Source of the DNA: Alphaproteobacteria bacterium
Lineage (GTDB): Bacteria; Pseudomonadota; Alphaproteobacteria; UBA9219; RFNS01
NCBI GenBank assembly: GCA_009927055.1
Contig: RFNS01000177.1
Span: 29,794-93,793, forward strand
Length of the DNA stretch: 64,000 bases
Direction: 5' to 3'
Shown here: positions 25,730-40,601 of the stretch, piece by piece
How the letters are laid out: each line of letters opens with the position of its first letter
How positions within the stretch are numbered: position 1 is the stretch's first letter
Notes under the pieces: model-generated
Told to the model about the DNA's origin: nothing
Database searches by the model: none
The model's input: the letters and a program-made list of their open reading frames with translations, nothing else
Translations under genes and position numbers: made by a program

Positions 25730-26482
25730 ATGCCCACCCCACCCTTGGTTACCGTTGCTGTGCCCAGTTTTCAGCAAGGCCGTTTTCTGGCCGATGCGCT
25801 TGATTCTATCTTGTCGCAACATGTGTCGGTTGAAATTTTTCTGGCCGATGGCGGATCAACCGACCAGACGCCAGAGATCATCAAAAAATACGCCCCCCAT
25901 CTGGCAGGCTGGCGCAGTGAGCGTGATGGCGGCCAGGCCAATGCCATTAACTGGGCCATGGCCCAGGGCACGGCCCCATTTGTGTGCTGGCTGAACAGCG
26001 ATGATGCCTTTGCTGCCAATGGGTTATCAACATTGCTTGATGCATTACAGAAGAACAGTGATTGGGCCATGGCCTATGGCAAGGTGATGAATACCGATGC
26101 AACCCTGACCCCCACCAGCGCTGTGTGGGTTCAATCGTTCAGCCGCTCAAAAATGGCGCAGCGCTGCATCATCAGCCAACCCGGCACCCTGATGCGGCGC
26201 ACGGCATGGGAAGCCGTGGGCGGCGTGAACGGCGCCCTTCATATGGCGATGGACTATGACTTGTGGTGGAAACTGTCAACGCAGGGGCCTTTGGGCCACG
26301 TGCCACGTCTTGTGGCCTATAACCGGGTCCACCCAGAGACAAAAACAAATTCAAAGCGCGTGCAACATTATGTTGAAGCCATGAAGGTGGTGCGCCAGCA
26401 TTATGGGCATGTGCCCCTCAAATGGTGGCTTTACTGGCCTTATGCGGTATGGTTCAAATCACTCCTTAACCCCCAACGTTGA
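25730..26482 (+). CDS. Family 2 glycosyltransferase (GT-A fold)
   Basis: VTVAVPSFQQGRFL...DGGSTDQT...WLNSDD (DxD) pattern; paralog of 27439..28656. Confidence 0.7.
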   Translation: MPTPPLVTVAVPSFQQGRFLADALDSILSQHVSVEIFLADGGSTDQTPEIIKKYAPHLAGWRSERDGGQANAINWAMAQGTAPFVCWLNSDDAFAANGLSTLLDALQKNSDWAMAYGKVMNTDATLTPTSAVWVQSFSRSKMAQRCIISQPGTLMRRTAWEAVGGVNGALHMAMDYDLWWKLSTQGPLGHVPRLVAYNRVHPETKTNSKRVQHYVEAMKVVRQHYGHVPLKWWLYWPYAVWFKSLLNPQR

Positions 26483-26490
26483 GACACTGC

Positions 26491-27432
26491 ATGGGCGCTG
26501 TCACCTTTTCAATCGATGAAAGACTGCTGGAAATACTTCAAAACAACGGCCGCCTAGATGCGTTTGTGGAAACCGGCACCTTCAAAGGTGATAGCGCGCT
26601 TCTTGCCTCAAAGTATGCCAAAAACGTTTACTCAGTCGAATGGTCAGAAAAGCTCTATGCAGAGGCCTCTGACAAATTGCGTGGTGTGGCGAATATCGCA
26701 TTAACCCAAGGCACATCACCCAACTTCCTGATGACATTAAAAAGCAGGCTTGCTGAACGTCAGATTGTGTATTTTTTAGATGCACATTGGTGCGTTCATG
26801 CCAACACCGCTGGGGAAGAATCGCAATGCCCGCTCTTGGAAGAGTTGAAAAGCATCGGCAGCTTAAAAAGTCGTGATATTGTCATCATCGATGATGCAAG
26901 GCTTTTTTTATGCTCCCCCCCTGCTCCTCATCATGTCACCGATTGGCCAAAACTGCACGACATCATTACAGCCCTTCAGCGCCTGAGCGCCTCTCATCGT
27001 CTCGCCGTCTGCAATGATATGATTTTATTTTATCCGGAGGATATGGAAACGCTCCTGTCAACCTATGCCATCAACCACGGCATTGACTGGCTTCACATCA
27101 TGCACCAAAACCGCGCCATTCAAAATGAGCACATCACCAAAGAGCACTTTTTTGCCGAGCAACGGCGATTGATTCAACTTGCACACGAAAAAGATGCCCT
27201 GATCCACCGGTATGAGGCGATATTCCAATCTTCTGCCAGCCTCAGCGATATTCACCCCGGCTTTATCTCAGAAATCCGCCGGCTTAACCATGAAGTTGCT
27301 TACTATCAGTCGCTCAGCAACGCCTACAAAGTTTATAGCGGCGGCGCCTTCAGTCAGTTGAAGGTGCAAGTGACAGCCGCGCTTGCCCGGTTAGGTCAAC
27401 GCTTGTCTCACCTGATCAGACGCACGTCTTGA
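26491..27432 (+). CDS. Class I SAM-dependent O-methyltransferase-like protein (family-3 OMT-like N-terminal domain) with C-terminal coiled-coil extension; start uncertain (TTG 26479 in track)
   Basis: FVETGTFKGDSALLAS (SAM motif I-like), ...VYFLDAHW..., ...DIVIIDDARLF... resemble the O-methyltransferase family-3 pattern. Confidence 0.45.
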   Translation: MGAVTFSIDERLLEILQNNGRLDAFVETGTFKGDSALLASKYAKNVYSVEWSEKLYAEASDKLRGVANIALTQGTSPNFLMTLKSRLAERQIVYFLDAHWCVHANTAGEESQCPLLEELKSIGSLKSRDIVIIDDARLFLCSPPAPHHVTDWPKLHDIITALQRLSASHRLAVCNDMILFYPEDMETLLSTYAINHGIDWLHIMHQNRAIQNEHITKEHFFAEQRRLIQLAHEKDALIHRYEAIFQSSASLSDIHPGFISEIRRLNHEVAYYQSLSNAYKVYSGGAFSQLKVQVTAALARLGQRLSHLIRRTS

Positions 27433-27438
27433 AAAGTC

Positions 27439-28656
27439 GTGACTGGACAAGTGACTGTTAAGCAGCCTATATCCTTTTCAGGAAAAAAACTTAAGCAAAA
27501 CACCCATCTTGGTGCAAAAAATATGACCAAACCTCAACTCCTTTCATCATCCGAACACACGACATCTCCAATCCAGGAGGATGAGGTTTTGAGCACAAAT
27601 GTTTTGTCGCGACTCCAAGAAGTGACAAAACATCTTGAAAAAATTGATACCCAATTGACCAAAAATAACAAGCACCTTGAGAATATAGAAGGTTTGATAT
27701 GCTCGAAAATGAATTCGTCGGCTGCCAACAAAACTTCTTCACTTGTAAAGCGCCTTTTCTGGCCGCGCTTGGGCAACTTGAACCAATCGCCGCCTTGCCA
27801 ACTTCTGCTTGATGACAGCTATTTCAAAACTTCGCCCCCCCCGAAGGCGCCAAAAATTTCTCTTGTCACGCCATCGTTTCGGCAAGGCGCCTTTATCGAA
27901 CGAACAATCCTCAGCATCCTTCATCAGGATTATCCCAATCTTGAATATATTGTTCAGGATGGTGGATCGACCGATGATACCGTTGCGCATCTAAAAAAAT
28001 ATGAACATCGCCTGACATCGTGGGTGAGCGAAAAAGATGGCGGACAAACCAACGCCATTAATCGCGGCTTTGCCAAAACGGACGGCGAGATTATGGGCTG
28101 GCTCAACTCCGATGATCTGCTGCTGCCAGGCAGCCTGAACACGGTTGCCAACTTTTTTGCCCAAAACCCGCATGTGGACGTGGTCTATGGCCACCGCATC
28201 CTGATTAATGAGCATGACCATCAGATTGGGCGCTGGATCATGCCCAACCACAATCACGATGTTTTATCGTGGGCCGATTTTATTCCACAAGAAACCATGT
28301 TCTGGCGGCGCAGCCTGTGGGAAAAAGTGGGCGCCAGCCTGGATGAAAACTTTAAGTTCGCCATGGATTGGGATTTGATCCTGCGTTTTCGGAAAGCGGG
28401 CGCAAAGTTTGTGCGAATCCCCCGTTTTCTTGGCGCCTTTCGCATCCATTCTGCCCAAAAAACCTCGGCTGTTATTTCTGATATCGGCTTTAAGGAAATG
28501 GATATTCTACGCAAACGGGAAATTGGCTACGTTCCAGGTTATCCGGAAATACGCAAAAATCTGCTGATCTATATCTTGGAACATATTGCGCTGGATTACT
28601 CTTACCGCCTGTCGAGAAATTTCAAACCGCGCAAACCTTTTATGGTGATGGCCTAG
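27439..28656 (+). CDS. Family 2 glycosyltransferase with about 140-aa low-complexity/coiled-coil N-terminal extension (GTG start in track; alternative ATG about 27523)
   Basis: C-terminal 260 aa parallel 25730..26482 (VTPSFRQGAFIERTILSILHQ...DGGSTDDT...WLNSDD); N-terminal region low-GC. Confidence 0.65.
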   Translation: MTGQVTVKQPISFSGKKLKQNTHLGAKNMTKPQLLSSSEHTTSPIQEDEVLSTNVLSRLQEVTKHLEKIDTQLTKNNKHLENIEGLICSKMNSSAANKTSSLVKRLFWPRLGNLNQSPPCQLLLDDSYFKTSPPPKAPKISLVTPSFRQGAFIERTILSILHQDYPNLEYIVQDGGSTDDTVAHLKKYEHRLTSWVSEKDGGQTNAINRGFAKTDGEIMGWLNSDDLLLPGSLNTVANFFAQNPHVDVVYGHRILINEHDHQIGRWIMPNHNHDVLSWADFIPQETMFWRRSLWEKVGASLDENFKFAMDWDLILRFRKAGAKFVRIPRFLGAFRIHSAQKTSAVISDIGFKEMDILRKREIGYVPGYPEIRKNLLIYILEHIALDYSYRLSRNFKPRKPFMVMA

Positions 28657-28660
28657 ATTC

Positions 28661-31519
28661 ATGCTGGCTCTCGCACTCAGTTTTTTGTTGCTTATTTATT
28701 TCTCGATGGTCGGTTTTAGCGCGCTTGGTTTCACGCAATTAAGACAACGATTGATGATTAAACTGCTGCTGGCCCCTGCGGTGGGAATTGGGTTGGTGAT
28801 GGTCCCCATCAACCTGCTTCATTTTTTTAATTTACCTATCAGCACCATCTGCTGGCCTGTTTTTATGGCCACAATTTTTATCGCTATCTTGCTTCTGTTA
28901 AGGCAAAAACCTATTATCCACACGCATCACGTCATACGCGTGGGGCTCATTGCCCTCGCCGCCTTGCTGGTGGTGGGGTGGCCCATGTTGCTGTTCGGGC
29001 TTGACTGGCTTAGCTACACCAACGATGACATGGCCAATTATGTTCTGGGGGCGCAGCGTTGTCTGCTGCACGGCCTTCAAGACAGGCCACCTGCCACTGC
29101 ATTCTCAGAGCACACCGACTACACCGCCTTTTTCTGGTTCATGCATTGGTTTGGCGGGCACCGCGTGGGATCGGAGCAGATGATCGCCTATTTCTGGGGA
29201 TTAACCGGGCTAAACGGGCACCAGCTGTTTGTACCGATGATGAACTGCTTTCACATGGCGTTGGTCATGGCGGCCGGCGGGCTTGTGTCGGCCAATTTTT
29301 CGGGCTCACGGCAGGCTTATGTCACTCTTATTCTCATGGCTTTATCACCCCTCACAGGATTGGGCACCCTCTTTCAGCTGATCGCGCAACTGATGGGTTT
29401 ACCCGTTTTATGCGCTCTGCTGGCTCTCTCACACCGACTGGCACGGCCGACATCCTCGCACTTGGTCGGCCATATCTTGATCACCGCCTTGTTGTTCGGG
29501 GGTCTTTGCATCATTTACCCCGAAACCCTACCGTTTTATGTTCTCAGTGTCATTGTTTTTCTGCTGGCCATGACATGGCGCCGCGGGCGCACTCAAAACA
29601 CCTTACGCCTGCTCATCATTGGTAGCATCATTGCCTTGGGGAGCCTGCTGTTACTGAACGTCACTTTGGCGAACATTGTGCATTTCATGATCACGCAGGC
29701 ACAGTCGGGATCGAGCGCCCATGTGGTGCGTGGGCTGATCTTACCTTATTTCATGCTACCCACAGGGTTGCCCACTTTTTGGGGGATTTTGCCACTCACC
29801 GCCCATCTTCCCCTGCCCGACATCCTGAAAGATGTCGTGATGAATGGAATGATTCTTGTGGCCATAGCTCTTTTTGGTATCTTGCTCTGGCAACTGTTCA
29901 AACAAATAAAAAAACAAACCGTCTGCGCCATCACATCTCTTGTGATGCTTCTGCTGGGGGGTTATCTGTTCTACCAAGTTAGTGATTTTGGTCTTTTCAA
30001 GCTGTCGATGTTTATCCAGCCTTTTGTGCTGGGTGTCATGGCGATCTGGCTTTGTGAAAAGAAAAAACTTTTTTCTCCTCGCCGACAAAAAATCGTTCTG
30101 TTGCTGCTGTTGGTTCCAACCTTGGTGACTTATGGCGGCTATACGCTACGCAGCACGGGCACGATCAGCGGCAGTGCCAATGATGTGCCGCTTGCTAGCC
30201 TTAAAAAGGTCAACCAGCAATTTGCACAAACCATGGAAGAGGCCAAAGAAAAAGGCCTGAATCTTTTATGGTCAGATGCATCATGTACTGTGCTGGCTAA
30301 GTTTCAATCATTATACGCGCTGGGTGAATCTTTCCTCCTCCCCTCGCGGGATTTTCTGGGGAAACTTTTGGATCAAGCCACAGGCAAGCCTTCACCCCTC
30401 ATGAGTGAGGAAGATATTCGTGCAGGCCATGAGCTCGATCAGATTCACATCCATCAACGTCGCGTCCATCTGATGGATAATCATTCTGTTGTTAACCGGT
30501 TCAAGGTTGTCAACAACCTGGGCGATGAATTATCGCGGCGCGCCTTAATCACAACCAACCAATCACAAAGCTTTTATAATGCTTATTATGCCAACCATGA
30601 TGACGCCCCTTACTTTAGAATAGATACAAAACCGCGCAATCATCTTGTGTTTGTTTTTTCTGATTTCGGCAACCACTATTACCTGCATGATGTTAAAAAA
30701 ATTTCGTATTTTGAGTTAGAGCGAGACCCGATGTTTCCCGGCCGCCAGTTTGCAAGCATGGGGCAGTATCTTGTATTCTTTATGGTTGGCGCGCCCCAGC
30801 AACCCCGCGTTTTAATGGAACTGACCAGCACCATTCTTAAACACAAAGGCAGCCAGTTGCCCCAGCCCGTCATCTCAGGAACAGAGGAAACGGTGATGCC
30901 GTTTGTGGGGCGCGGCTCTGGCCGCATGGTCAGCGCGCCTGTGCAAGGCAAAATGATTGAAGGCGCGCCCTTTCTGGCCTTCGATATGCAATCGCCCCCC
31001 GAGCGCATGCCCATTCACCGCACAGGCCTGATGAACCTGTATCACCCTGAAATACCGCTTGATCTGCGTAACATCAGCGTGTTTGGACGCGATGTATCGA
31101 TTATCGACGACGAGGATTATGGCGCGTGGCAACGACCATCGTGGCTTGAAAAATTTCCGGCCGATCTGTCGCACAAACATCTGGAATATTCGGGCATTTA
31201 TGAGGATGGATGGCTGTCTGAACACAGTTTGTTTGTTTTATCACGCCCCGATAAAAATTCAGTCCTGCACATTCAAGGATTGATCCCTTTGGTAAAAAAT
31301 AGCCAATTCAGCACAACTCTGACTGTAAAAATAAATGGGAAGAATATGTTGGAACAACAATTAGCTTTGGGCGAGTTTCACTTCCGCATCCCGTCCGATC
31401 AGTTGCCCGAAAGCACAAGCTACCGCATTGAACTCATTTTCTCTGCCGCCCAGAAGCTGCCAGGCGATGATGCCCGCGTGGCCGTGGGCCAGCTGCACGC
31501 CATCGGGTTCAGGCCCTGA
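28661..31519 (+). CDS. Large polytopic membrane protein, putative GT-C-fold glycosyltransferase (YfhO/ArnT-like architecture: 12-15 TM N-terminal half plus about 450-aa extracytoplasmic C-terminal domain)
   Basis: 952 aa; many TM helices to about residue 480; conserved acidic pair in first extracytoplasmic loop (WLSYTNDDMANY); immediately followed by GtrB-like and GtrA-like genes. Confidence 0.45.
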   Translation: MLALALSFLLLIYFSMVGFSALGFTQLRQRLMIKLLLAPAVGIGLVMVPINLLHFFNLPISTICWPVFMATIFIAILLLLRQKPIIHTHHVIRVGLIALAALLVVGWPMLLFGLDWLSYTNDDMANYVLGAQRCLLHGLQDRPPATAFSEHTDYTAFFWFMHWFGGHRVGSEQMIAYFWGLTGLNGHQLFVPMMNCFHMALVMAAGGLVSANFSGSRQAYVTLILMALSPLTGLGTLFQLIAQLMGLPVLCALLALSHRLARPTSSHLVGHILITALLFGGLCIIYPETLPFYVLSVIVFLLAMTWRRGRTQNTLRLLIIGSIIALGSLLLLNVTLANIVHFMITQAQSGSSAHVVRGLILPYFMLPTGLPTFWGILPLTAHLPLPDILKDVVMNGMILVAIALFGILLWQLFKQIKKQTVCAITSLVMLLLGGYLFYQVSDFGLFKLSMFIQPFVLGVMAIWLCEKKKLFSPRRQKIVLLLLLVPTLVTYGGYTLRSTGTISGSANDVPLASLKKVNQQFAQTMEEAKEKGLNLLWSDASCTVLAKFQSLYALGESFLLPSRDFLGKLLDQATGKPSPLMSEEDIRAGHELDQIHIHQRRVHLMDNHSVVNRFKVVNNLGDELSRRALITTNQSQSFYNAYYANHDDAPYFRIDTKPRNHLVFVFSDFGNHYYLHDVKKISYFELERDPMFPGRQFASMGQYLVFFMVGAPQQPRVLMELTSTILKHKGSQLPQPVISGTEETVMPFVGRGSGRMVSAPVQGKMIEGAPFLAFDMQSPPERMPIHRTGLMNLYHPEIPLDLRNISVFGRDVSIIDDEDYGAWQRPSWLEKFPADLSHKHLEYSGIYEDGWLSEHSLFVLSRPDKNSVLHIQGLIPLVKNSQFSTTLTVKINGKNMLEQQLALGEFHFRIPSDQLPESTSYRIELIFSAAQKLPGDDARVAVGQLHAIGFRP

Positions 31520-31558
31520 TCACTTGCCATGATGCGTGGCTTTATTTATCGATAAGAG

Positions 31559-32509
31559 ATGACTCGCGAAGCCCCCAACCCCCTGCTGTCGGTTGTTGTT
31601 CCTGTCTATAAGGAGGAAAACAGCATTAAGCCTTTTCTGGCGCGCATAGAGCCTGTGTGCCAAAAAATTGCCGGCGATTCTTATGAAATTATCTTTTCAC
31701 TCGATCCATCGCCCGACAAAACCGAAGATGTGATTATGGCCGAAATTCAGCGCAACCCCCATATTCGGCTGCTTGTTTTCTCGCGGAGGTTTGGGCAACC
31801 GGCCGCCACCATGGCGGGCATTTTGTCATCGCAAGGGCAACACTGCGTGGCGATTGATGTTGACCTGCAAGACCCGCCCGAATTGATTGAAACCATGTTC
31901 CAAAAACTGGGCGAGGGGTTTGAAGTGGTTTATGCCCAGCGCCGCACGCGCGAGGGCGAAACGTGGGTGAAAAAAACCATTGCTGAATTCGGTTATGCGG
32001 TCATCAATAAACTGAGTGATGTTAAAATCCCCCGCAACACGGGCGATTTTCGCATCATGACACGCCGCGTGGTGGAAGAACTGCGCCGCCTGAACGAAAC
32101 GCACGGCTTTTTGCGCGGGCTGGTGGCGTTTGTGGGCTTTAAGCAGGCCGCAGTGTTATACGATCGCGATGCACGCTTTGCTGATGTGGGCAAATATAAT
32201 CGCCTGACAGGTTCTTTCAAAATTGGCCTGAACGGTCTGGTTGGGTTCAGCAGTCGGCCCCTTCAGTTTATGTCGCTGATTGGTTTTTGCTTCGCCATGA
32301 TTGGCTTTTTGCTGGGGGCCTGGTACGTTTTCCAAAAAATTGTGGGTATTGAACTCACCCCCGGTCTTTCAACCACTGTGCTGGTTGTCACGTTCTTTTC
32401 TGGCGTACAGCTGCTGGCGCTGGGGCTGATGGGCGAATATGTGGGCCGCATTTATGACGAAGTGAAACGCCGCCCCGCCTATATTGTCGATCGCAAGGTC
32501 AATTTTTAA
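31559..32509 (+). CDS. Polyprenyl-phosphate glycosyltransferase (GtrB/CsbB/ArnC/DPM1-like GT2 with C-terminal TM pair)
   Basis: LSVVVPVYKEE...DDGS-like region, DVDLQDPPE (DxD), C-terminal two TM helices; 316 aa. Confidence 0.75.
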   Translation: MTREAPNPLLSVVVPVYKEENSIKPFLARIEPVCQKIAGDSYEIIFSLDPSPDKTEDVIMAEIQRNPHIRLLVFSRRFGQPAATMAGILSSQGQHCVAIDVDLQDPPELIETMFQKLGEGFEVVYAQRRTREGETWVKKTIAEFGYAVINKLSDVKIPRNTGDFRIMTRRVVEELRRLNETHGFLRGLVAFVGFKQAAVLYDRDARFADVGKYNRLTGSFKIGLNGLVGFSSRPLQFMSLIGFCFAMIGFLLGAWYVFQKIVGIELTPGLSTTVLVVTFFSGVQLLALGLMGEYVGRIYDEVKRRPAYIVDRKVNF

Positions 32510-32916
32510 TGATGGCGCTTATCAGGGAAAATCTGCGCCGGCCGGCGGTGCGATATATCTTGGTGGGCGTCACCAACACAACTTTCGCATGGCTGCTCAT
32601 GAACCTCACGCTGGGCCCGCTGGCCATGAGCCCGGCCGCCGGCATGGCCATCGTTTTTGCTTTAACGGCCATTTTTCATTTTATCGCCAATCGGCAGTTC
32701 ACCTTTCAAAGCAAGGGCAAGTGGCAGCATGATGTGCTGCGGTATCTTATCCTTTTGGGTGTCAATTACTTATCAACAACCGCCCTCACCCAATGGTTGA
32801 CCGATTTGTCGCTGCCGCTATTAATCATCACAACAGCCGCAACGGTGTGGAGCGCGCTGCTGGGCTTTGCGGGGGGCAAATTTTTTGTTTTTCGCAACGC
32901 ATCGTCATCTCTTTGA
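32509..32916 (+). CDS. GtrA-family small membrane protein (polyprenyl-P-sugar flippase-like)
   Basis: 135 aa, 4 TM, RYILVGVTNTTFAWLL... typical GtrA fold; start overlaps upstream stop (TAATG). Confidence 0.7.
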   Translation: MMALIRENLRRPAVRYILVGVTNTTFAWLLMNLTLGPLAMSPAAGMAIVFALTAIFHFIANRQFTFQSKGKWQHDVLRYLILLGVNYLSTTALTQWLTDLSLPLLIITTAATVWSALLGFAGGKFFVFRNASSSL

Positions 32917-32925
32917 GCGAAAAAC

Positions 32926-33888
32926 ATGACACAAAAAAAATATTTGGTCACCGGCGCCGCGGGCTTTATTGGCAGCACGCTGGTCGATCGTCTGCTGCGT
33001 GATGGTCACACCGTGGTGGGGATTGATAATTTTTCAACAGGACAGCGCCGCTTTCTTGAAAAGGCGCAACCCACCCCCCGCTTCACACTGATCGAGATTG
33101 ACCTGCTGCACGGCAATATTGTGCCGCATTTTGCGGGGGTTGATGGCGTGTTTCATCTGGCCGCCAATGCCGATGTGCGCTTTGGCACCGATGCCCCGCG
33201 CCGCGATTTAGAGCAAAACACCATCGTTACCCACAACGTGCTGGAAGCGATGCGACAAAACGGCGTGACACAGATTGGTTTTTCATCCACCGGCTCGGTT
33301 TATGGTGAGGCCAGGCAAATCCCCACGCCAGAGGATGGCCCCTTCCCCATCCAAACATCGCTTTATGGCGCCTCAAAACTGGCGGGCGAAGGGCTGATTG
33401 CGGCCTATGCCGAAGGTTTTGGTTTTAAGGCGTGCATTTTCCGTTTCGTCTCGGTGCTGGGGCCGCGTTACACGCACGGCCACGTGTTTGATTTTGTCCA
33501 GCAGTTGAAAAAAGACCCCGCCAACCTGCGCGTGCTGGGCAATGGCAAGCAACGCAAATCGTACATGCATGTCGATGACTGTGTCGATGCCATTTTGCTG
33601 GCGACCGAAAAATCGACCGAGAAGGTGGGCGTGTTTAATCTGGGCTGCCCCGAATATTGTGAAGTGAACGACAGCATTGGGTGGATCACCGCCCGCATGG
33701 GCCTGAATCCGCAGCTGAATTATACGGGCGGCGAACGTGGGTGGATTGGCGATAATCCGTTCATCTTCCTTGATGTACAAAAAATTCTGGCCCTAGGCTG
33801 GAATCCCAAATACACTATTCGCCAAGGCGTTGAAGCGACAGTTGATTTTCTGACGAACAATCTTTGGGTTTATGAGGCGCGATCATGA
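32926..33888 (+). CDS. NAD-dependent epimerase/dehydratase (extended SDR, UDP-sugar 4-epimerase/decarboxylase-like)
   Basis: VTGAAGFIGSTLVDRLL Rossmann motif, YxxxK present (YGASKLAGE). Confidence 0.75.
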   Translation: MTQKKYLVTGAAGFIGSTLVDRLLRDGHTVVGIDNFSTGQRRFLEKAQPTPRFTLIEIDLLHGNIVPHFAGVDGVFHLAANADVRFGTDAPRRDLEQNTIVTHNVLEAMRQNGVTQIGFSSTGSVYGEARQIPTPEDGPFPIQTSLYGASKLAGEGLIAAYAEGFGFKACIFRFVSVLGPRYTHGHVFDFVQQLKKDPANLRVLGNGKQRKSYMHVDDCVDAILLATEKSTEKVGVFNLGCPEYCEVNDSIGWITARMGLNPQLNYTGGERGWIGDNPFIFLDVQKILALGWNPKYTIRQGVEATVDFLTNNLWVYEARS

Positions 33889-34006
33889 AGGGTGTTGATC
33901 ATGCCTTAGGCCAACAAACACCTCATCACGCGGCCTGTTTGCCCAACGATGATGGCACGCTGCGCTGCATTGTGCCGGCCGATCGCGGCAAAAAATGGGG
34001 GAACTG

Positions 34007-34993
34007 ATGCGCGTAGGCATTGTGGGCTGTGGGTTGATTGGCCAAAAACGCGCCAAGGCGCTGGCGGGCGCGCATCTCACCATGTGCGCCGATGTGGTGA
34101 TGGATCGCGCCGCCGCACTGGCCAAAACCGCCAAGGCCGAGGCGACCGATGACTGGCAAAAACTGGTGACAAGCCCCCATGTTGATGTGGTTGTGGTGGC
34201 CACGCGGCATGATGTGCTGGCCCCCATAACCCGCGCCGCCATCGACAACGGCAAGCACGTTCTGGTTGAAAAACCGGCCGCACGACACACCACCGAACTG
34301 GCGGGCCTGGCCGATGCGGCCAAGCAAAAAAAGGTTTGCGTGCGCGTGGGGTTTAATCATCGCTATCATCGCGCTTTCCAAAAAGCACGGCAGATTGTGG
34401 ACAGCGGCGCGCTGGGCGAGATGATGTTTATTCGCGCGCGCTATGGCCACGGCGGGCGCGTGGGATACGATAAAGAATGGCGGGCTGATCCCGCGCTCTC
34501 TGGTGGGGGCGAGCTGATTGACCAAGGCGTGCACCTGATTGATCTGGCTGGGTGGTTTCTGGGAAATTTCCCCCACGTTGATGGTTTTGCGCACACATAT
34601 TTTTGGCAAATGCCGGTTGATGATAACGGCTTTATGATTTTGCGGACAGAAAAAAACCAGGTGGCCTTCTTGCATGCCAGCTGCACCGAATGGAAAAACA
34701 CTTTTTCGTTCGAAATGTATGGCCGCACCGGCAAACTTCATATCGAAGGTTTGGGCGGCAGCTATGGCGTTGAGCGTCTGACGCACTATGCCATGCAGCC
34801 CGAAATGGGCCCGCCGCCCACCGAAGCGTGGGAGTATCCGATGGCCGATAACTCGTGGGATGTTGAAATGGCCGAATTTCTGGCCGATATTCAGCAGGGG
34901 CGCACACCGGCCGCCGGCCTTGCAGAGGCCGAGGCCGCCCTGACAGTTGTTCAAAAAATCTACGAAAGGTCTGGATATGATCATCGCCCGTAG
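34007..34993 (+). CDS. Gfo/Idh/MocA family NAD(P)-dependent sugar oxidoreductase
   Basis: MRVGIVGCGLIGQKRAKAL..., EKP motif (VLVEKPAA). Confidence 0.75.
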   Translation: MRVGIVGCGLIGQKRAKALAGAHLTMCADVVMDRAAALAKTAKAEATDDWQKLVTSPHVDVVVVATRHDVLAPITRAAIDNGKHVLVEKPAARHTTELAGLADAAKQKKVCVRVGFNHRYHRAFQKARQIVDSGALGEMMFIRARYGHGGRVGYDKEWRADPALSGGGELIDQGVHLIDLAGWFLGNFPHVDGFAHTYFWQMPVDDNGFMILRTEKNQVAFLHASCTEWKNTFSFEMYGRTGKLHIEGLGGSYGVERLTHYAMQPEMGPPPTEAWEYPMADNSWDVEMAEFLADIQQGRTPAAGLAEAEAALTVVQKIYERSGYDHRP

Positions 34994-35957
34994 TCCCCTT
35001 CGCGTCACCCTTGGCGGCGGCGGCACCGATTTGCCTTCGTATTATCGCGAACACGAAGGATTTTTGATCGCCGCGGCGATTGATAAATATGTTTATGTCA
35101 CCGTCATGCGGCCATTTACGCCCGGAATTTTTTTGAAATACTCGCAACTTGAAAATGTGCCGCAGCCCGATGACGTGAAGCACCCCATTGTGCGCGAAGC
35201 CCTGCACATCATGAAAGAGCCCGTGCCGCAGGTTGAAATTACCACGCTGGCCGATATTCCTTCGGGTACGGGGCTTGGCTCATCGGGCAGTTTTACAACA
35301 GCCCTGATGAAGGCCCTGTATATGCATCACAAAAAACTTATTTTGCCGGCCGAGCTGGCCGAACTGGCATGCCACATTGAGATTGACCGATTGAAGGAGC
35401 CGGTGGGCAAGCAAGATCAATACATCGCGGCCTATGGCGGCATTACCTGCTTTACCTTCTGCCGCGATGATAAAGTGCAGGCGCGCCCCCTCAACATCAA
35501 TTCAGAAACGATGTTTGATCTGGAAGATAATTTGCTGCTGTTCTTCACCGGTTTTTCGCGCAGCGCCGGCAGCATTTTGAAAGACCAGAACACCAAAACG
35601 CAGCAAAATAATAACGATATGATTGCCAACCTGAATTATGTGAAAGACCTTGGCCTGCGCAGTCAAAAGGCGCTGGAAGCCGGCAACGCGCGCGAATTTG
35701 GCGCCCTGATGCACGAACATTGGGAGCACAAGAAAAAACGCAGCGGCGGCATGAGCAACCCCAAAATTGACGAATGGTATGAACTGGGCATGACAAGCGG
35801 CGCGGTGGGTGGCAAGCTGGTGGGCGCGGGCGGCGGTGGCTTCCTTATGTTCTATGCCGAGGATAGAAACAAACTGAAACATGCGATGGTGAAAGCGGGG
35901 CTGGAAGAAGTCCGTTTTCGGTTTGATTTTGAAGGCACAAAAATTGTGTTGAACTGA
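34977..35957 (+). CDS. GHMP kinase, D-glycero-alpha-D-manno-heptose 7-phosphate kinase (HddA-like)
   Basis: ARSPLRVTLGGGGTDLPSYY..., GHMP motif PSGTGLGSSGSFTTAL; positioned with gmhA/gmhB/nucleotidyltransferase. Confidence 0.65.
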   Translation: MIIARSPLRVTLGGGGTDLPSYYREHEGFLIAAAIDKYVYVTVMRPFTPGIFLKYSQLENVPQPDDVKHPIVREALHIMKEPVPQVEITTLADIPSGTGLGSSGSFTTALMKALYMHHKKLILPAELAELACHIEIDRLKEPVGKQDQYIAAYGGITCFTFCRDDKVQARPLNINSETMFDLEDNLLLFFTGFSRSAGSILKDQNTKTQQNNNDMIANLNYVKDLGLRSQKALEAGNAREFGALMHEHWEHKKKRSGGMSNPKIDEWYELGMTSGAVGGKLVGAGGGGFLMFYAEDRNKLKHAMVKAGLEEVRFRFDFEGTKIVLN

Positions 35958-36661
35958 TGATCCCCGTTGCCATTTTGGCGGGTGGGCTGGCCACGCGCCT
36001 TCGCCCCATCACCACAACCATCCCCAAGGCTTTGGCCGAAGTAGCGGGCCACCCCTTTATTCATTGGCAGCTGCAAGATCTTGCGGTGCAGGGCGCGCAC
36101 GATGTGGTGATGCTGGTGGGCTATTTGGGCGAGCAGATTGAAAAAGAAATTGGCAACGGCCACCAATACGGCCTGAACATTCGCTATGTTTTTGATGGGC
36201 CAACACTGCTGGGCACCGGCGGCGCGTTGCGTCAGGCCCTGCCGCTGCTGGGCGATGCGTTTTTTGTGCTGTATGGCGATTCCTTTTTGCAGGTCAATTA
36301 TCAGGCGGTGGAGGCGGCCTTTATCAAAAGCGGCCAGCGCGCCCTGATGACCGTGTTAAAAAACGGCAACCAATGGGACAAAAGCAATGCAACCTTCAGC
36401 GGCGGCCAACTGATTGAATATAATAAGAAAAGCCCCACACCCGCCATGACCTATATCGATTATGGCCTCAGCATTTTAACCCGCCAGGCCCTTGAAGACT
36501 GGCACGAAAACGGTGTGTTTGATCTGGCCAGTTTGTTTCACTATCTTTCGGTGAGCGGACAATTGGCGGGTTTTGAGGTGTTTGAGCGTTTCTATGAAAT
36601 CGGCACCCCGCAATCACTCGCCGAAGCCAACGCATACTTTTCATCAAAGAGGAAACCATGA
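35957..36661 (+). CDS. Sugar-1-phosphate nucleotidyltransferase (HddC-like D-glycero-alpha-D-manno-heptose 1-phosphate guanylyltransferase)
   Basis: AILAGGLATRLRPITTTIPKAL... NTP_transferase signature, 234 aa. Confidence 0.65.
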   Translation: MIPVAILAGGLATRLRPITTTIPKALAEVAGHPFIHWQLQDLAVQGAHDVVMLVGYLGEQIEKEIGNGHQYGLNIRYVFDGPTLLGTGGALRQALPLLGDAFFVLYGDSFLQVNYQAVEAAFIKSGQRALMTVLKNGNQWDKSNATFSGGQLIEYNKKSPTPAMTYIDYGLSILTRQALEDWHENGVFDLASLFHYLSVSGQLAGFEVFERFYEIGTPQSLAEANAYFSSKRKP

Positions 36662-37287
36662 CCTACGCCGCGCAACACATTCAAGAATCCATTCAGATTT
36701 TACAAAAAATTGATGCCGCCGCGATTGAACGCATGGCCGATGAGCTGGCCGCACTCCGCGCGCGCGGTGGACGACTGATTTTTCTGGGCGTGGGCGGCAG
36801 TGCGGGCAACTGCGGTCATGCCGTCAATGATTTTAGAAAAATTGTGGGCATCGAAAGTTATGCCCCCACCGATAATGTTTCAGAACTCACCGCGCGCACC
36901 AACGATGAAGGCTGGGCCAGCATTTTTATCGAGTGGTTGAAGGTTAGCAAACTGAACAACAATGATGCGGTTTTTGTTTTCTCGGTTGGCGGCGGCAATA
37001 TTGAAAAAAACATCAGCCCCAATTTGGTCACGGCCCTTCAACACGCCAAAAGTGTGGGTGCAAAAATTTTGGGCGTGGTGGGGCGCGATGGCGGCTATAC
37101 CGCCCAGGTGGCCGATGCCTGCGTGATTGTGCCCACCGTGAACAATGATAACGTCACACCCCACAGCGAGGCGTTTCAGGCCGTGGTGTGGCATTTGCTG
37201 GTGTCGCATCCCAAACTGAAAGCCAACCAAACAAAATGGGAAAGCGCCACAGGTTCGCCCGCGGTTTCTACAGCCAAAGTGGCCTAA
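36658..37287 (+). CDS. gmhA: Sedoheptulose-7-phosphate isomerase (SIS domain, GmhA)
   Basis: SIS domain GVGGSAGNCGHAVNDF..., ...FSVGGGN... Confidence 0.75.
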   Translation: MTYAAQHIQESIQILQKIDAAAIERMADELAALRARGGRLIFLGVGGSAGNCGHAVNDFRKIVGIESYAPTDNVSELTARTNDEGWASIFIEWLKVSKLNNNDAVFVFSVGGGNIEKNISPNLVTALQHAKSVGAKILGVVGRDGGYTAQVADACVIVPTVNNDNVTPHSEAFQAVVWHLLVSHPKLKANQTKWESATGSPAVSTAKVA

Positions 37288-37290
37288 GCG

Positions 37291-37824
37291 TTGACGCGCG
37301 CCGTTTTTCTTGATCGTGATGGTGTGCTGAATGCCTCGCTGGTGCGCGATGGCCAGCCCTTTCCGCCCGCCACCCTTGATGAGCTGGATATTTTGCCAGG
37401 CGTGCCCGAAGCGCTGCACAAACTGCATCATGCCGGTTTTCTTTTGCTGGTGTGCACCAATCAACCCGATATTGCGCGCGGCAAAACCAAACTGGCCGAT
37501 GTGCAAAAAATCCACGCGCACATGATGCAGACATTGCCGCTGGATGATGTTTTTATGTGCCCGCATGATGGGGGCGATGGTTGCGCGTGCCGCAAGCCCA
37601 AACCAGGCATGATTGTGCAAGGGGCCGAGAAATGGGGCGTTGACCCCCGCCAAAGCTTTATGGTGGGCGACCGCTGGCGCGATGTGGCGGCGGGCCAGGC
37701 CGCCGGTTGCACCAATTATTTTATCAACTATAACTACAACGAATCCCAGCCGCAGCCCCCTTTTTTTGAGGTTGCCTCACTTCTGGAGGCCGCGGATCAT
37801 ATCCTCTCTAACCCGGTCACATGA
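37291..37824 (+). CDS. gmhB: D,D-heptose 1,7-bisphosphate phosphatase (HAD-IIIA, GmhB)
   Basis: TTG start; AVFLDRDGVLN (DxDGT/V motif), CxHxxxxGCxCRKP zinc-binding insertion typical of GmhB. Confidence 0.7.
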   Translation: MTRAVFLDRDGVLNASLVRDGQPFPPATLDELDILPGVPEALHKLHHAGFLLLVCTNQPDIARGKTKLADVQKIHAHMMQTLPLDDVFMCPHDGGDGCACRKPKPGMIVQGAEKWGVDPRQSFMVGDRWRDVAAGQAAGCTNYFINYNYNESQPQPPFFEVASLLEAADHILSNPVT

Positions 37825-37831
37825 GGGCCCC

Positions 37832-38548
37832 ATGCCAAGCATCCATGAACTGAACGTGAAAATTTTTGCCGATGGTGCCGATAAAACAGGCATGCTGGAC
37901 ATGGCGGCGAAGGATCATATCAAAGGCCTGACCACCAACCCCACGCTGATGAATAAAGCCGGCATCAAAGATTATGAAGCCTTTGCGAAAGATATTTTGT
38001 CGGTCATTCAAACCAAACCTATTTCGTTTGAAGTTTTTTCAGATGATTTTGCCGATATGGAACGTCAGGCTCACAAAATCGCCAGCTGGGCCGATAATGT
38101 TTATGTAAAAATCCCCATCACCAACACAAAAGGTGAAAGCGCGGCACCGCTGGTGGCCAAACTGGCGCAACAAAGAATAAAACTGAACATCACCGCGCTG
38201 ATGACGCTTGATCAGGTGAAAACCGTTGTGGCTGCGGTGCAACCCGATGTGCCCAGCTATATCTCTGTTTTTGCGGGCCGCATTGCCGATACGGGCATCG
38301 ACCCCCTGCCCCTCATGCAGGCCTCGATTACGGCGATGAAGGCCAAACCCGCTTCTGAGCTGATCTGGGCCAGCCCGCGCGAACTGCTGAACGTTTTTCA
38401 GGCCGATGCGATTGGCTGCCACATTATTACCGTGACCAACGATATTTTGAAAAAATTATCGCTGGTGGGGTATGACCTGAACACCTATTCGCTGGATACC
38501 GTGAAAATGTTTTATAACGATGCGACGGCGGCGGGTTTTAAGCTATGA
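37832..38548 (+). CDS. Transaldolase/fructose-6-phosphate aldolase family (short TalC/FSA type)
   Basis: FADGAD..., TTNPTL, KIPIT (Schiff-base Lys), [16 protein letters not shown] motifs; GAGGG RBS. Confidence 0.7.
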
Positions 38549-39627
38549 AAAAAGCACTGATCACAGGCATTACGGGGCAGGATGGCGCCTATTTGGCTGA
38601 GTTTTTACTTGGCAAAGGGTATGAAGTTCACGGCGTCAAGCGTCGCAGCTCGCTGTTTAATACGCAGCGCATCGACCACATTTATCAAGACCCGCACGAA
38701 AAAGACCGCAGGCTGTTTCTCTATCACGGCGATATGACCGACAGCCTAAGTTTGCTGCGTGTTGTGCAGCGCGTTCAGCCCGATGAGATTTATAATCTTG
38801 CCGCGCAAAGCCACGTGGCCGTTAGTTTTGAAGAACCTGAATATACCGCGAATTCCGATGCGCTGGGCGCCCTCCGCCTCCTGGAAGCCATTCGCATTTT
38901 AGGGTTAGAGAAAAAAACACGCTTTTATCAGGCCAGCACGTCTGAACTTTATGGGTTGGTGCAAGAAATTCCGCAAAAAGAAACCACACCGTTTTATCCG
39001 CGCAGCCCCTATGCCGTGGCCAAGCTTTATGCCTACTGGATTACGGTCAACTACCGCGAAGCCTATGGCATGTATGCCTGCAACGGCGTGCTGTTTAACC
39101 ACGAAAGCCCGCTGCGTGGCGAAACATTTGTGACGCGCAAAATCACGCGGGCTATCTCGCGCATTTATTTGGGCCTGCAAGATTGTTTGTATATGGGCAA
39201 CCTGAACGCCAAGCGCGATTGGGGCCACGCGCGCGATTATATCGAGATGCAATGGCTGATGCTGCAGCAAAAACAGCCCGAAGATTTTGTCATCGCCACC
39301 GGTGTTCAGGCCAGCGTGCGCGATTTTATAGAAATGTCGGCGGCCGAAGTGGGCATCAAACTCACATGGCGCGGTCATGGTGTTGATGAAAAAGGCTATG
39401 ATCAAAACGACAAATGCATTGTGGCGGTTGATCCGCGCTATTTCCGCCCAACCGAGGTGGATACTCTTTTGGGCGATGCGACCAAGGCGCGCGTCAAACT
39501 TGGCTGGCAACCCAAAATTACTCTTGAAGAACTGGTGAAGGAAATGATGCAGGCCGACGTGATATCGGCCAAACGTGATGACCTGATTAAAAAGCACGGC
39601 TATGCCGTGTTCAACCACAACGAATAG
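38545..39627 (+). CDS. gmd: GDP-mannose 4,6-dehydratase
   Basis: [21 protein letters not shown]..., [17 protein letters not shown], 360 aa. Confidence 0.85.
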
Positions 39628-39629
39628 CC

Positions 39630-40601
39630 ATGGACGCCAACACAAAAATTTATGTGGCAGGACACCGCGGGCTGGCGGGGTCGGCCATTGTGCGCGGCCT
39701 TCAACGTGCCGGTTATTCAAACATTATCACGCGCACGCATGCCGAGCTTGATTTAACCCTCCCCCAACCAACAGATGATTTTTTTAGCACCACAAAGCCC
39801 GATGTTGTTTTTCTGGCCGCCGCCAAGGTGGGCGGCATTGTGGCCAACAACACTTATCCGGCTGATTTTTTGCGCGAAAACCTGGCCATTCAGAACAACG
39901 TGATTGATGCCGCGCATCGTCATGGCGTGGCGCGGCTTGTTTTTCTTGGCTCCAGCTGCATTTACCCGCGCGATTGTCCGCAGCCAATCAAAGAAAATTA
40001 TCTGCTCACAGGCCCGCTGGAGGCCACCAACAGCGCCTATGCTCTGGCCAAAATTTCAGGCGTTGAAATGTGCCGCGCTTATAATCAGCAGCATGGCACG
40101 CATTTTTTGGCTGCCATGCCCACCAATCTTTATGGACCTGGCGATAATTATGATTTGCAGCATTCGCACGTGCTGCCCGCCCTTATTCGCAAGGCGCACG
40201 AAGCCAAACAGGCCGGCGCCGCCGACATGGTGGTGTGGGGCACAGGCACACCGAAGCGCGAGCTGCTTTATTCTGATGATCTGGCCGATGCGCTGGTCAT
40301 GCTGATGCAGCTGCCCCCGCCTGCTTTTCAAAAAATATTGACCGATGAACGCTGGCCCCTCATCAACGTGGGCTGCGGCGAGGATTTAACCATCCGCGAA
40401 CTGGCGCAATTAGCCATTGAACAAGTTGGCTTCAGCGGTCAGCTGCGTTTTGACACCACACGGCCCGATGGCACCCCCCGCAAGGTGATGGATGTCTCGC
40501 GCATCAAGGCGCTGGGCTGGTCGCCAAAAATTTCTCTGGCGCACGGCATCAGCCTCGCCTATGCCGATTATCTGCAGCGCAGCCAAAAACAGGCAGCGTA
40601 A
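39630..40601 (+). CDS. fcl: GDP-L-fucose synthase (GDP-4-keto-6-deoxy-D-mannose 3,5-epimerase/4-reductase)
   Basis: KIYVAGHRGLAGSAIVR..., SSCIYP, YALAKISG catalytic triad context; 323 aa. Confidence 0.85.
   Translation: MDANTKIYVAGHRGLAGSAIVRGLQRAGYSNIITRTHAELDLTLPQPTDDFFSTTKPDVVFLAAAKVGGIVANNTYPADFLRENLAIQNNVIDAAHRHGVARLVFLGSSCIYPRDCPQPIKENYLLTGPLEATNSAYALAKISGVEMCRAYNQQHGTHFLAAMPTNLYGPGDNYDLQHSHVLPALIRKAHEAKQAGAADMVVWGTGTPKRELLYSDDLADALVMLMQLPPPAFQKILTDERWPLINVGCGEDLTIRELAQLAIEQVGFSGQLRFDTTRPDGTPRKVMDVSRIKALGWSPKISLAHGISLAYADYLQRSQKQAA

Follow-up and report, generated by a model that had tools for sequence, protein, structure and literature searches.

In this study, we find that a 952-aa protein encoded in a 64,000-nucleotide stretch of DNA (the window; gene at 28661..31519, + strand, ATG start) is probably a GT-C-fold integral-membrane glycosyltransferase that belongs to a large unnamed family and acts as the transferase in a Gtr/Arn-like module for extracytoplasmic glycosylation. 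It is the GT-C family that is new; the kind of system is already known, as periplasmic three-component glycosylation in O-antigen loci, including systems whose GT-C enzyme carries C-terminal CBMs, is established and widespread (PMC11127046). The preliminary description of this DNA had regarded the module as an undescribed system, which holds for the GT-C family, unnamed in databases, but not for three-component periplasmic glycosylation as such. Its functional interpretation finds support in the predicted fold and in the genomic context.

The gene lies in an island of + strand genes with intergenic gaps ranging from -4 to 39 nt. The island opens with a soluble GT2 glycosyltransferase of 250 aa (25730..26482; PF00535 at 1.2e-19, no hydrophobic segments), which is followed by a methyltransferase-like protein of 317 aa, or 313 aa by gene callers (26479..27432; weak Pfam and NCBIfam methyltransferase matches), and by the soluble GT2 glycosyltransferase GT2b (27439..28656; PF00535 at 2.3e-23), the start of which possibly lies later (355 or 377 aa by gene callers). 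The three open reading frames proposed earlier as a module are all present on the + strand, namely the gene of the 952-aa protein, a GtrB-like gene (31559..32509) and a GtrA-like gene (32509..32916), with spacings of 39 and then -1 nt, the start of the GtrA-like gene overlapping the gtrB stop codon; their products are the only membrane proteins of the island. Downstream are a NAD-dependent NDP-sugar 4-epimerase (32926..33888; PF01370 at 9.5e-51) and, in the same operon-like block, a set of sugar-nucleotide genes (33995..40601, + strand; Pfam and NCBIfam assignments). The first part of this block encodes a GFO/IDH/MocA oxidoreductase, an HddA-like kinase, an HddC-like nucleotidyltransferase and GmhA (SIS domain), and the rest encodes GmhB, a transaldolase, Gmd (595 bits against a cut-off of 415) and an Fcl-like synthase (452 against a cut-off of 500). 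The island of the window lacks wzm/wzt, wzx and wzy, which we count against the preferred explanation as regards the route of the acceptor to the periplasm. A separate Wzy_C ligase-like gene is also present nearby in the window. The source record is a MAG labelled 'Alphaproteobacteria bacterium', in which the 952-aa protein (NBX73609.1) is annotated as "hypothetical".

The identification of the two small partners was borne out. The GtrB-like protein (316 aa) consists of an N-terminal GT2 (GT-A) domain (PF00535 at 4.1e-23) followed by two C-terminal TM helices (240-258 and 274-292), and the solved GtrB sll0501 (1e-72, residues 10-311) and ArnC (about 1e-37, residues 5-312) both align with it at full length, which places it among the GtrB/ArnC-type polyprenyl-phosphate glycosyltransferases. 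Its best NCBIfam model was PgfS (1.1e-68, 232 bits against an equivalog cut-off of 500), and the ArnC model scored 1.3e-42 (146 bits against 529); equivalog-level identity to PgfS or ArnC, enzymes of known sugar specificity, was thus not reached, and because both scores fall below the cut-offs the donor sugar is not assignable. The GtrA-like protein, a small multi-TM protein of 135 aa, belongs to the GtrA family (PF04138 at 8.8e-14, 52.2 bits against a gathering cut-off of 26.1, covering 117/117 profile positions) and is a putative flippase, a role that is taken from the literature and is proven for no GtrA (PMC11127046).

The 952-aa protein has 14 predicted TM helices within residues 1-497 (membrane domain 28661..30151, + strand, from AF2 secondary structure, hydropathy and K/R distribution), and then a soluble region of 455 aa (residues 498-952; 30152..31516, + strand), in agreement with the 12-15 helices and roughly 450-aa domain described previously. 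The N-terminus is predicted to lie outside, and hydropathy together with the positive-inside pattern likewise places the C-terminal domain, which has CBM-like folds, outside the cytoplasm; the cytoplasmic location that had been named as an argument against a GT-C role is therefore not what the prediction indicates. The topology comes from simple hydropathy and a positive-inside count, which we regard as a weakness of the preferred explanation. In the predicted structure, the C-terminal region appears to begin with a small alpha/beta subdomain, behind which lie two beta-sandwich (CBM-like) domains, and it holds a conserved LEYSGxYEDGW motif at residues 841-851. Family members are about 950-1,250 aa long, the longer homologs carrying extra copies of the CBM-like domain.

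The predicted structure of the membrane domain matches solved GT-C enzymes. The structural matches of the protein include AftA, AftD and AftB, as well as PIG-U and GAB1, which are non-catalytic GT-C-fold subunits, and BcsB domains. The resemblance to YfhO, ArnT and AftD that had been suggested stands for the fold, but not for membership of any of these families. The Pfam search proposed for YfhO, PMT_2 and DUF families gave no match for the 952-aa protein or for 38 relatives; no Pfam family at all was found for the protein at E <= 0.1, and none of the 38 family members matched YfhO (PF09586) at E <= 10. Moreover, an NCBIfam search returned no ArnT/PMT_2 match, and a PDB sequence search with the single sequence and with a 53-sequence profile returned no match, solved ArnT and PMT included. 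We therefore rejected membership of YfhO (PF09586), for want of an HMM match, and of ArnT/PMT_2 (PF13231 and relatives; CAZy GT83 and GT39), to which the resemblance is in fold only; an AftD/DUF3367-type assignment was likewise discarded, as neither the family HMM nor the solved AftD sequence matched. Wzy_C, polymerase and transporter HMMs and folds also gave no match, and a Wzy/O-antigen ligase or transporter identity, which had been named as the finding that would speak against a GT-C enzyme, was rejected. No sequence relationship to any characterised GT-C is detectable, and we count this against the preferred explanation.

The motif YTNDDMANY occupies residues 119-127. Among 53 homologs, D123 is invariant and the other positions of NDDMANY (N121-Y127; 29021..29041, + strand) are at least 90% conserved; R168, Q243, Y286, E288 and K447 are likewise invariant in the 53 sequences. 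The positive-inside pattern assigns all invariant polar residues to the predicted periplasmic side, within loops or at the ends of helices. NDDMANY lies six residues past the helix at 88-115 and opens a 78-residue external loop with short helices. The acidic pair had been placed in the first external loop; the motif is present and the loop is predicted to be external, but it follows helix 4 and is only the first large external loop. Helices 1-3 are N-terminal to the apparent canonical GT-C TM1, to which we infer that helix 4 (residues 88-115) is equivalent. Judging from this conservation, D122 and D123 are candidate catalytic acids.

The family is widespread, with 2,274 clusters at 50% identity and 333 matches among species genomes in at least eight phyla. 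Its hosts are mostly diderm bacteria, and it is also found in Chloroflexia; phage and plasmid collections gave no match. Synteny was examined in 81 loci, 44 of which are well flanked (at least 6 kb on each side). GT2b is the most conserved genomic partner, with an ortholog (at least 40% identity) in 49/81 loci, usually as the gene immediately preceding the large one, and in 28/44 of the well-flanked ones. Epimerase orthologs (58-72% identity) occur in 34/81 loci. In the well-flanked subset, the GtrB ortholog is present in 20 of the 44 loci (25/44 if any GtrB-like gene is counted), the epimerase ortholog in 20/44, and both together in 17/44. The usual order on a single strand is GT2b, GT-C, GtrB and epimerase, in Proteobacteria, Opitutaceae and other phyla, so that the module context proposed for the window, with linkage to GtrB orthologs, holds across phyla. 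A lipid-sugar synthase, a flippase candidate and a GT-C protein are thus adjacent in the window, and their linkage is conserved in relatives, although only partly for the flippase. Two observations count against the preferred explanation: GtrA is nearby in only 14/81 loci, and a GtrB-like gene is missing within 6-8 kb in 19/44 well-flanked loci. Related loci are often of the wzm/wzt O-antigen type, and those of Yersinia alsatica and Opitutaceae carry in addition wzm, wzt (Wzt_C domain) and methyltransferases. With the methyltransferase-like protein of the window as query, tblastn gave 41-42% identical matches covering at least half of the query in loci L039 and L002; one of these loci, L039, holds a Methyltransf_23 ORF at 11748-12695.

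Taken together, the preferred explanation would operate as follows. The adjacent SDR 4-epimerase would yield a particular NDP-sugar in the cytoplasm; its closest solved relatives are 3EHE (6.5e-81, with an identity of roughly one half over the aligned residues as judged by eye), 8RDG (2.9e-72) and 3ICP, and the GDP-sugar-preferring Gal4E subgroup includes 3EHE, 8RDG and 3AW9 (PMC12171764). The epimerase probably makes the sugar nucleotide for the GtrB-like enzyme, and the streptococcal Pgf system similarly combines an epimerase and GT-C enzymes with a GtrB-like one (PMC12041528). The GtrB-type GT2 would move the sugar of the NDP-sugar onto undecaprenyl phosphate at the inner membrane face, and the lipid-linked sugar would be brought, in the presumed direction, to the periplasmic face by the GtrA-family protein or, where GtrA is absent, by another flippase. 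There the GT-C enzyme would take the sugar off its lipid carrier and attach it to a polysaccharide, catalysis perhaps depending on the acidic NDD motif at the large external loop and on the periplasm-facing R168, Y286/E288 and K447. The polysaccharide may be held by the C-terminal CBM-like domains; there are precedents in Emb and AftD and in the GT136 enzyme, the CBM of which binds the unmodified O-antigen backbone (PMC11127046). As acceptor, the most likely candidate is the glycan for which the co-conserved soluble GT2 directly upstream makes the backbone; PDB relatives of this GT2 are the GT-A domains of chondroitin and heparosan synthases. In relatives, this glycan would be an ABC-transporter (wzm/wzt) dependent O-antigen-type polymer, often with heptose.

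It is conceivable, but unlikely, that the 952-aa protein is a GT-C enzyme that works processively or adds several sugars, like the mycobacterial Emb/Aft arabinosyltransferases, and that the GtrB product is built into an oligomeric or polymeric periplasmic branch or cap. The Aft structural matches favor this, the two or more CBM-like domains recall the CBM-bearing Emb and AftD (PMC11127046), and a dedicated, highly conserved epimerase-GtrB supply would fit bulk sugar use. However, the sequence has no feature that separates single from multiple additions, and most described GtrB-type three-component systems of O-antigen loci add single residues (PMC11127046). A GT-C of the oligosaccharyltransferase or ligase kind we consider rather improbable. 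The adjacent GT2 would then make an Und-PP-glycan, Wzm/Wzt would export it, and the 952-aa protein would attach it whole to a final acceptor (e.g., a protein, lipid or cell-wall component), leaving the GtrB module separate or auxiliary. Wherever the GtrB ortholog occurs in a locus, the large protein is the sole GT-C candidate, and something must consume the GtrB product; in addition, no sequence similarity between the C-terminal domain and solved oligosaccharyltransferases could be detected, in fold the domain resembles CBMs and not the peripheral domain of STT3, PglB or AglB, and the nearby Wzy_C gene would offer a separate ligase.

A different acceptor is implied if the protein resembles ArnT or Rhizobium RgtA-D and places a GtrB-made sugar (e.g., galacturonic acid) on lipid A or the LPS core rather than on a polysaccharide, and this we regard as quite improbable. 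The linkage to a polymer-type GT2 and the frequent wzm/wzt with Wzt_C indicate a polysaccharide, the CBM-like domains suggest a glycan chain as acceptor, and the family is present in Chloroflexia, which are not known to have LPS. Finally, the matches to PIG-U, GAB1 and BcsB would fit a protein of GT-C fold that is no enzyme but serves as a scaffold, in export or in chain handling, much like PIG-U/GAB1 or the BcsB-like proteins that guide glycans in the periplasm. Such a role seems very improbable in view of the invariant acidic motif and the several invariant external charged residues; their conservation in thousands of sequences is what one expects of an active site.

Compared with known systems, the module shares with GtrA/GtrB/GtrC of Shigella and Salmonella, which is phage-borne, the adjacency of a GtrB-type GT2 with two C-terminal TM helices, a GtrA and a polytopic transferase, and presumably also an O-antigen-type acceptor. 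It differs in its larger transferase with 14 TM helices and a periplasmic region of three subdomains, in having no matches in phage or plasmid collections, in the conserved NDP-sugar 4-epimerase and soluble GT2, and in that GtrA is missing from most related loci. In contrast to ArnC/ArnE-ArnF/ArnT, which adds Ara4N to lipid A, the transferase has three extra N-terminal helices and no PMT_2/ArnT sequence match, the flippase candidate is of GtrA and not ArnE/F type, and the large CBM-like region suggests a polysaccharide acceptor and not lipid A. The Gram-positive CsbB/GtcA/YfhO and Pgf systems (PgfS, the epimerase PgfE, PgfM1/PgfM2) also combine a GtrB-like GT2, GtrA/GtcA and GT-C, and Pgf too has a dedicated epimerase (PMC12041528); here, however, the GT-C is not of the YfhO family, the hosts are mostly diderm, and the loci are O-antigen-like polysaccharide loci instead of serving teichoic acid or protein glycosylation. 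Mycobacterial AftD, AftA and EmbA-C differ in showing no sequence similarity, in their donor-synthesis pathway and in a wholly different phylogenetic range, though they share the large size of the GT-C enzyme, the extra TM helices, the periplasmic CBM-type domains and the use of polyprenyl-phosphate sugars. With the GT136 family, found in the pentofuranose system ORF15/ORF14/ORF12 of Citrobacter youngae (Kelly et al. 2024, PMC11127046), no sequence relation was detected; its donor comes from a PRPP-dependent synthase and not a GtrB-type GT2, its flippase is MATE-type, its epimerase acts on the lipid-linked sugar, and the enzyme has 11 TM helices and an Asp before or after TM1. That system nonetheless also modifies an ABC-transporter-dependent O-antigen in the periplasm after polymerisation, through a GT-C that founded a new family and binds the unmodified backbone by way of a C-terminal CBM, with an auxiliary epimerase setting the identity of the sugar (PMC11127046).

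In this study, we propose that the 952-aa predicted membrane protein encoded at 28661-31519 (+) is probably the GT-C arm of a module, moving a sugar loaded by GtrB onto a periplasmic glycan. The proposal is based on a confidently predicted GT-C fold, on residues that are invariant and lie, like a conserved acidic motif, on the predicted outer face, on CBM-like domains, and on synteny, conserved across phyla, of the large gene with genes for a polymer-type GT2, a GtrB ortholog and an NDP-sugar 4-epimerase. The three ORFs of the module were found where the preliminary description had placed them, at 28661-31519, 31559-32509 and 32509-32916, all on the forward strand of a contig from a metagenome-assembled 'Alphaproteobacteria bacterium', and encode the large protein (NBX73609.1, annotated as hypothetical in GenBank), a 316-aa GtrB-like protein with a PF00535 GT2 domain (4.1e-23) and a 135-aa GtrA-family protein (Pfam match of 52 bits against a cut-off of 26). 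The GtrB-like protein can be aligned from end to end with ArnC (about 1e-37) and with GtrB sll0501 (1e-72), for which a crystal structure exists, and its C-terminus forms two hydrophobic helices like those of GtrB/ArnC enzymes. Judged by sequence, the 316-aa and 135-aa proteins belong to the GtrB and GtrA families, respectively, and the GtrB ortholog falls below the equivalog cut-off of every model of known specificity. With gaps of -4 to 39 nt between its genes, the module is part of an operon-like run of 15 closely spaced genes on one strand (25730-40601, +), which opens with a GT2 gene, a methyltransferase-like gene and a second, soluble GT2 gene (27439-28656, here GT2b) and continues after the module with sugar-nucleotide genes. 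These comprise the GDP-heptose pathway genes for GmhA, an HddA-like protein, GmhB and an HddC-like protein, together with genes for a transaldolase, Gmd and an Fcl-like protein. The large protein, GtrB and GtrA are the only membrane proteins of this island, and a search of it for wzm and wzt found neither.

The large protein belongs to an extensive family. Scans of its sequence against Pfam and NCBIfam at E <= 0.1 gave no match, no meaningful PDB sequence match came from the single sequence or from a 53-sequence profile, and 38 family members compared with Pfam at E <= 10 yielded neither YfhO, PMT_2 nor any shared family. A word-indexed search recovered 55 full-length homologs, contigs sampled at one genome per species gave 333 confirmed matches, and an exhaustive profile search returned 2,274 cluster representatives (50% identity) at E <= 1e-3, of which 955 reached E <= 1e-30; among the 150 matches listed from the latter search, almost every one is about 930-1,290 aa long and aligns end to end. 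The family reaches at least eight phyla, its carriers including Alpha-, Beta- and Gammaproteobacteria (among them Yersinia alsatica IP38850, a Legionella MAG and an Asaia MAG), Opitutaceae, Bryobacteraceae and other Acidobacteriota, Tepidisphaerales, Chloroflexia, filamentous cyanobacteria and Vulcanimicrobiota. At the level of fold, a confident structure prediction assigns the large protein to the GT-C class. In an uncultured gammaproteobacterium the large gene occurs as two tandem paralogs (locus L049, 5057-7975 and 8001-10841), which are 28% and 31% identical to the query. The 954-aa ORF at 16136-19000 had also been considered as a paralog, and it is unrelated.

Hydropathy and a positive-inside count gave a self-consistent topology in which residues 1-497, with the N-terminus outside, hold 14 hydrophobic helices and the remaining 455 residues are soluble. 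The loops at 20-34, 81-93, 256-267, 303-316, 411-419 and 463-477 are rich in K/R (6 K/R in 463-477) and are placed inside, and the parts placed outside are loop 113-190, region 336-391 and the C-terminal domain, which agrees with the earlier expectation that the large C-terminal domain is not cytoplasmic. The YTNDDMANY string corresponds to residues 119-127, in which D123 is invariant among 53 sequences and conservation is 90% or higher at N121, D122, M124, A125, N126 and Y127. Elsewhere in the membrane domain W116, R168, Q243, Y286, E288, K447 and P454 are invariant in the same set, and conserved blocks are found at 286-292 (YPExxPF), 362-375 (PYxxxPxGxxxxWG) and 442-455 (DFGLxKLxMxxQPF). All invariant polar residues fall on the periplasmic face of the predicted topology, as expected for an extracytoplasmic active site. 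The NDD motif starts six residues past helix 88-115 and opens a 78-residue loop with short helices, an arrangement that mimics TM1 and external loop 1 of GT-C enzymes; we infer that helix 88-115 corresponds to GT-C TM1, in which case the three preceding helices would be an N-terminal addition.

The predicted periplasmic domains of the large protein are CBM-like. The last beta-sandwich domain (residues about 811-951, with a YSGxYEDGW motif) occurs as tandem duplicates at the C-terminus of longer homologs, and in some loci it is also encoded separately, 2.5-5 kb from the large gene. Copies of this domain are found in the fetched loci L001 (12866-13291), L008 (10866-11243), L034 (10869-11234), L022 (2938-3354), L036 (9973-10347) and L072 (13297-13665). 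Being duplicated and separately encoded, it behaves as a mobile CBM-like module.

The proteins of the window locus were compared with 81 fetched loci that carry homologs of the large gene, and with a subset of 44 loci having at least 6 kb on both sides. The steadiest neighbour of the large gene is the soluble GT2b rather than GtrB: a GT2b ortholog (>= 40% identity) is present in 49 of the 81 loci, usually directly upstream and sometimes directly downstream, and a GtrB ortholog (50-74% identity) lies downstream on the same strand in 39-40, followed by an SDR epimerase ortholog (58-72% identity) in 34. In the 44 well-flanked loci, GT2b was found in 28, the GtrB ortholog in 20 (25 when any GtrB-like gene is counted), the epimerase in 20, GtrB and epimerase together in 17, Wzt in 10, GmhA in 9, HddA in 8 and a UDP-glucose dehydrogenase-like gene in 5. 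A GtrA-family ORF is near the large gene in only 14/81 loci; an apparent GT-C/GtrA fusion in locus L017 proved to be two genes in different frames. Two loci were read from end to end. The locus of Y. alsatica IP38850 (L039) consists of wzm, wzt (with Wzt_C), GT2, the large gene, gtrB, a methyltransferase gene, gtrA, the epimerase gene, a second methyltransferase gene, an SDR gene, a GFO/IDH/MocA gene, hddA and hddC. That of an Opitutaceae member consists of wzm, wzt (with Wzt_C), a methyltransferase gene, a GT9-GT2 fusion, the large gene (1,217 aa), gtrB, a further methyltransferase gene and the epimerase gene. Both loci are of the O-antigen type, depend on an ABC transporter and carry machinery for terminal methylation. 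In Opitutaceae (L066, 5118-7952) the GT2b ortholog carries a fused GT9 heptosyltransferase domain, and in a locus from Chloroflexia (L009, 12550-15390, -) it carries a fused GT4 domain; such multidomain glycosyltransferases are typical backbone polymerases in ABC-transporter-dependent pathways. In the Chloroflexia locus, a sulfotransferase gene adjoins the large gene. A cyanobacterial variant of the module occurs in Phormidium tenue FACHB-886 (L011, 6520-10886), where GtrA is followed by a short 279-aa GT2, whose tblastn alignment covers only residues 10-131 of the window GtrB, at 30% identity, and downstream by the large gene and several multidomain glycosyltransferases. A DNA search of complete E. 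coli genomes with the Yersinia large gene, aimed at a known O-antigen structure, gave no match.

In the proposed mechanism, the epimerase would supply a specific NDP-sugar, GtrB would transfer the sugar to undecaprenyl phosphate, and the lipid-linked sugar would be moved across the membrane by GtrA or, in loci lacking it, by another flippase. The GT-C enzyme would then transfer the sugar in the periplasm to a glycan whose backbone is built by the co-conserved GT2, with the CBM-like domains binding this acceptor. The logic is common to GtrABC, ArnC/ArnT, CsbB/GtcA/YfhO, the streptococcal Pgf system (PMC12041528) and the GT136 O-antigen system of Citrobacter youngae (Kelly et al., 2024; PMC11127046). 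One of the two main rivals is that the large protein makes multiple additions or polymerises, as Emb and Aft do; the other is that it modifies lipid A or core in the manner of ArnT/Rgt. The preliminary description had likened the protein to YfhO, ArnT and AftD, and sequence tests for membership in the YfhO, ArnT/PMT_2 and AftD families failed in each case.

With regard to the donor, the epimerase of the window (32926-33888) points to GDP-sugars. It matches Archaeoglobus GalE-1 (3EHE, 6.5e-81) and Pyrococcus PhGal4E_1 (8RDG, 2.9e-72), roughly half of the aligned residues matching in each, as judged by eye; the latter was crystallised with GDP-L-fucose, and the subgroup of both is described as GDP-sugar-preferring and highly promiscuous (PMC12171764). 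The bacterial epimerases (the window protein and its orthologs, in 34 loci) are 58-72% identical across phyla and form a clade closest to this archaeal GDP-sugar 4-epimerase subgroup, with a GGxRGWxGD segment kept; their substrates appear to be unstudied. GDP-heptose and GDP-6-deoxyhexose pathways are encoded in the window and in about a fifth of the related loci. However, a UDP-glucose 6-dehydrogenase-like gene lies directly downstream of the epimerase gene in locus L001 and has homologs in 8-9 of the 81 loci, which would fit a uronic-acid donor, so that there are two conflicting donor leads. A more far-reaching version of the proposal, suggested by the affinity of the epimerase and by the GDP-heptose and GDP-6-deoxyhexose genes around the module in many loci, seems unlikely to us: the large protein would represent a new CAZy-level GT-C family with an unusual, conserved donor, in which the GtrB ortholog loads Und-P from a GDP-heptose or GDP-6-deoxyhexose C4-epimer and the large enzyme acts as a periplasmic heptosyl- or deoxyhexosyl-transferase, possibly polymerising, on glycans that ABC transporters export, across at least eight phyla. 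If true, polyprenyl-phosphate donors of this kind, with a GDP-sugar-derived C4-epimer on Und-P, would be a previously undescribed class. The co-conserved 4-epimerase provides a handle on the identity of the sugar.

The module had been presented as an undescribed system. This holds for its GT-C family and its combination of features; it does not hold for the kind of system, since periplasmic systems of this type have been explicitly called widespread (PMC11127046). The GT-C of the GT136 system likewise has a C-terminal CBM, which binds the unmodified O-antigen backbone (PMC11127046). Kelly et al. note that no further epimerase was known to them from systems that build O-antigen side chains (PMC11127046), which makes the conserved epimerase a modest point of interest. 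In a literature survey of incomplete coverage, taking in three-component systems, GT137-142 and ABC-transporter-dependent systems with a GT-C, we found no characterised member of the family. Distinctive features are the three extra N-terminal helices and three-subdomain periplasmic region predicted for the large protein and, in the module, a pairing with a soluble GT2 that we regard as obligatory, a dedicated NDP-sugar 4-epimerase and an optional GtrA. If the assignment is correct, a function would be gained for a membrane family of roughly 1,000 residues and >2,000 clusters, annotated only as hypothetical, in Proteobacteria, Verrucomicrobiota, Acidobacteriota, Planctomycetota, Chloroflexota, cyanobacteria and others. 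A new glycosyltransferase family would then probably be established, and a widespread, unrecognised periplasmic decoration step in O-antigen-like glycans would be implied. No concept would be overturned and the result is not conceptually surprising, the three-component logic being well established. The prediction is directly testable in Y. alsatica IP38850, a culturable carrier.

The 15-kb glycan island (25730-40601, +) lies between nuoD (24438-25652, -) and nuoC/nuoB (40935-42058, -), splitting the NADH dehydrogenase genes on the opposite strand. Horizontal acquisition is suggested by the GC content, 0.49-0.51 at 26-32 kb against 0.54-0.58 in most bins on either side. Each junction recurs in at least five assemblies made independently from different samples, which excludes an assembly chimera. 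A Gtr-like mobile-element origin was rejected: homologs are absent from the phage and plasmid collections, and neither flanking repeats nor tRNA genes were found at the island edges. Beyond nuoD, a 193-aa ORF with no Pfam match is followed by clpB and not by nuoE. The 954-aa protein encoded at 16136-19000 (+) joins a polyprenyl-phosphate sugar-phosphate transferase domain of the GT4/WecA-WbpL type to a Polysacc_synt_2 (PglF/WbpM-type) dehydratase domain, and could be a glycan-initiating enzyme in this host. Just past nuoB, a membrane protein of the Wzy_C (O-antigen ligase) family (42959-44380, -; 1.1e-21) is a candidate WaaL-type ligase for the island glycan.
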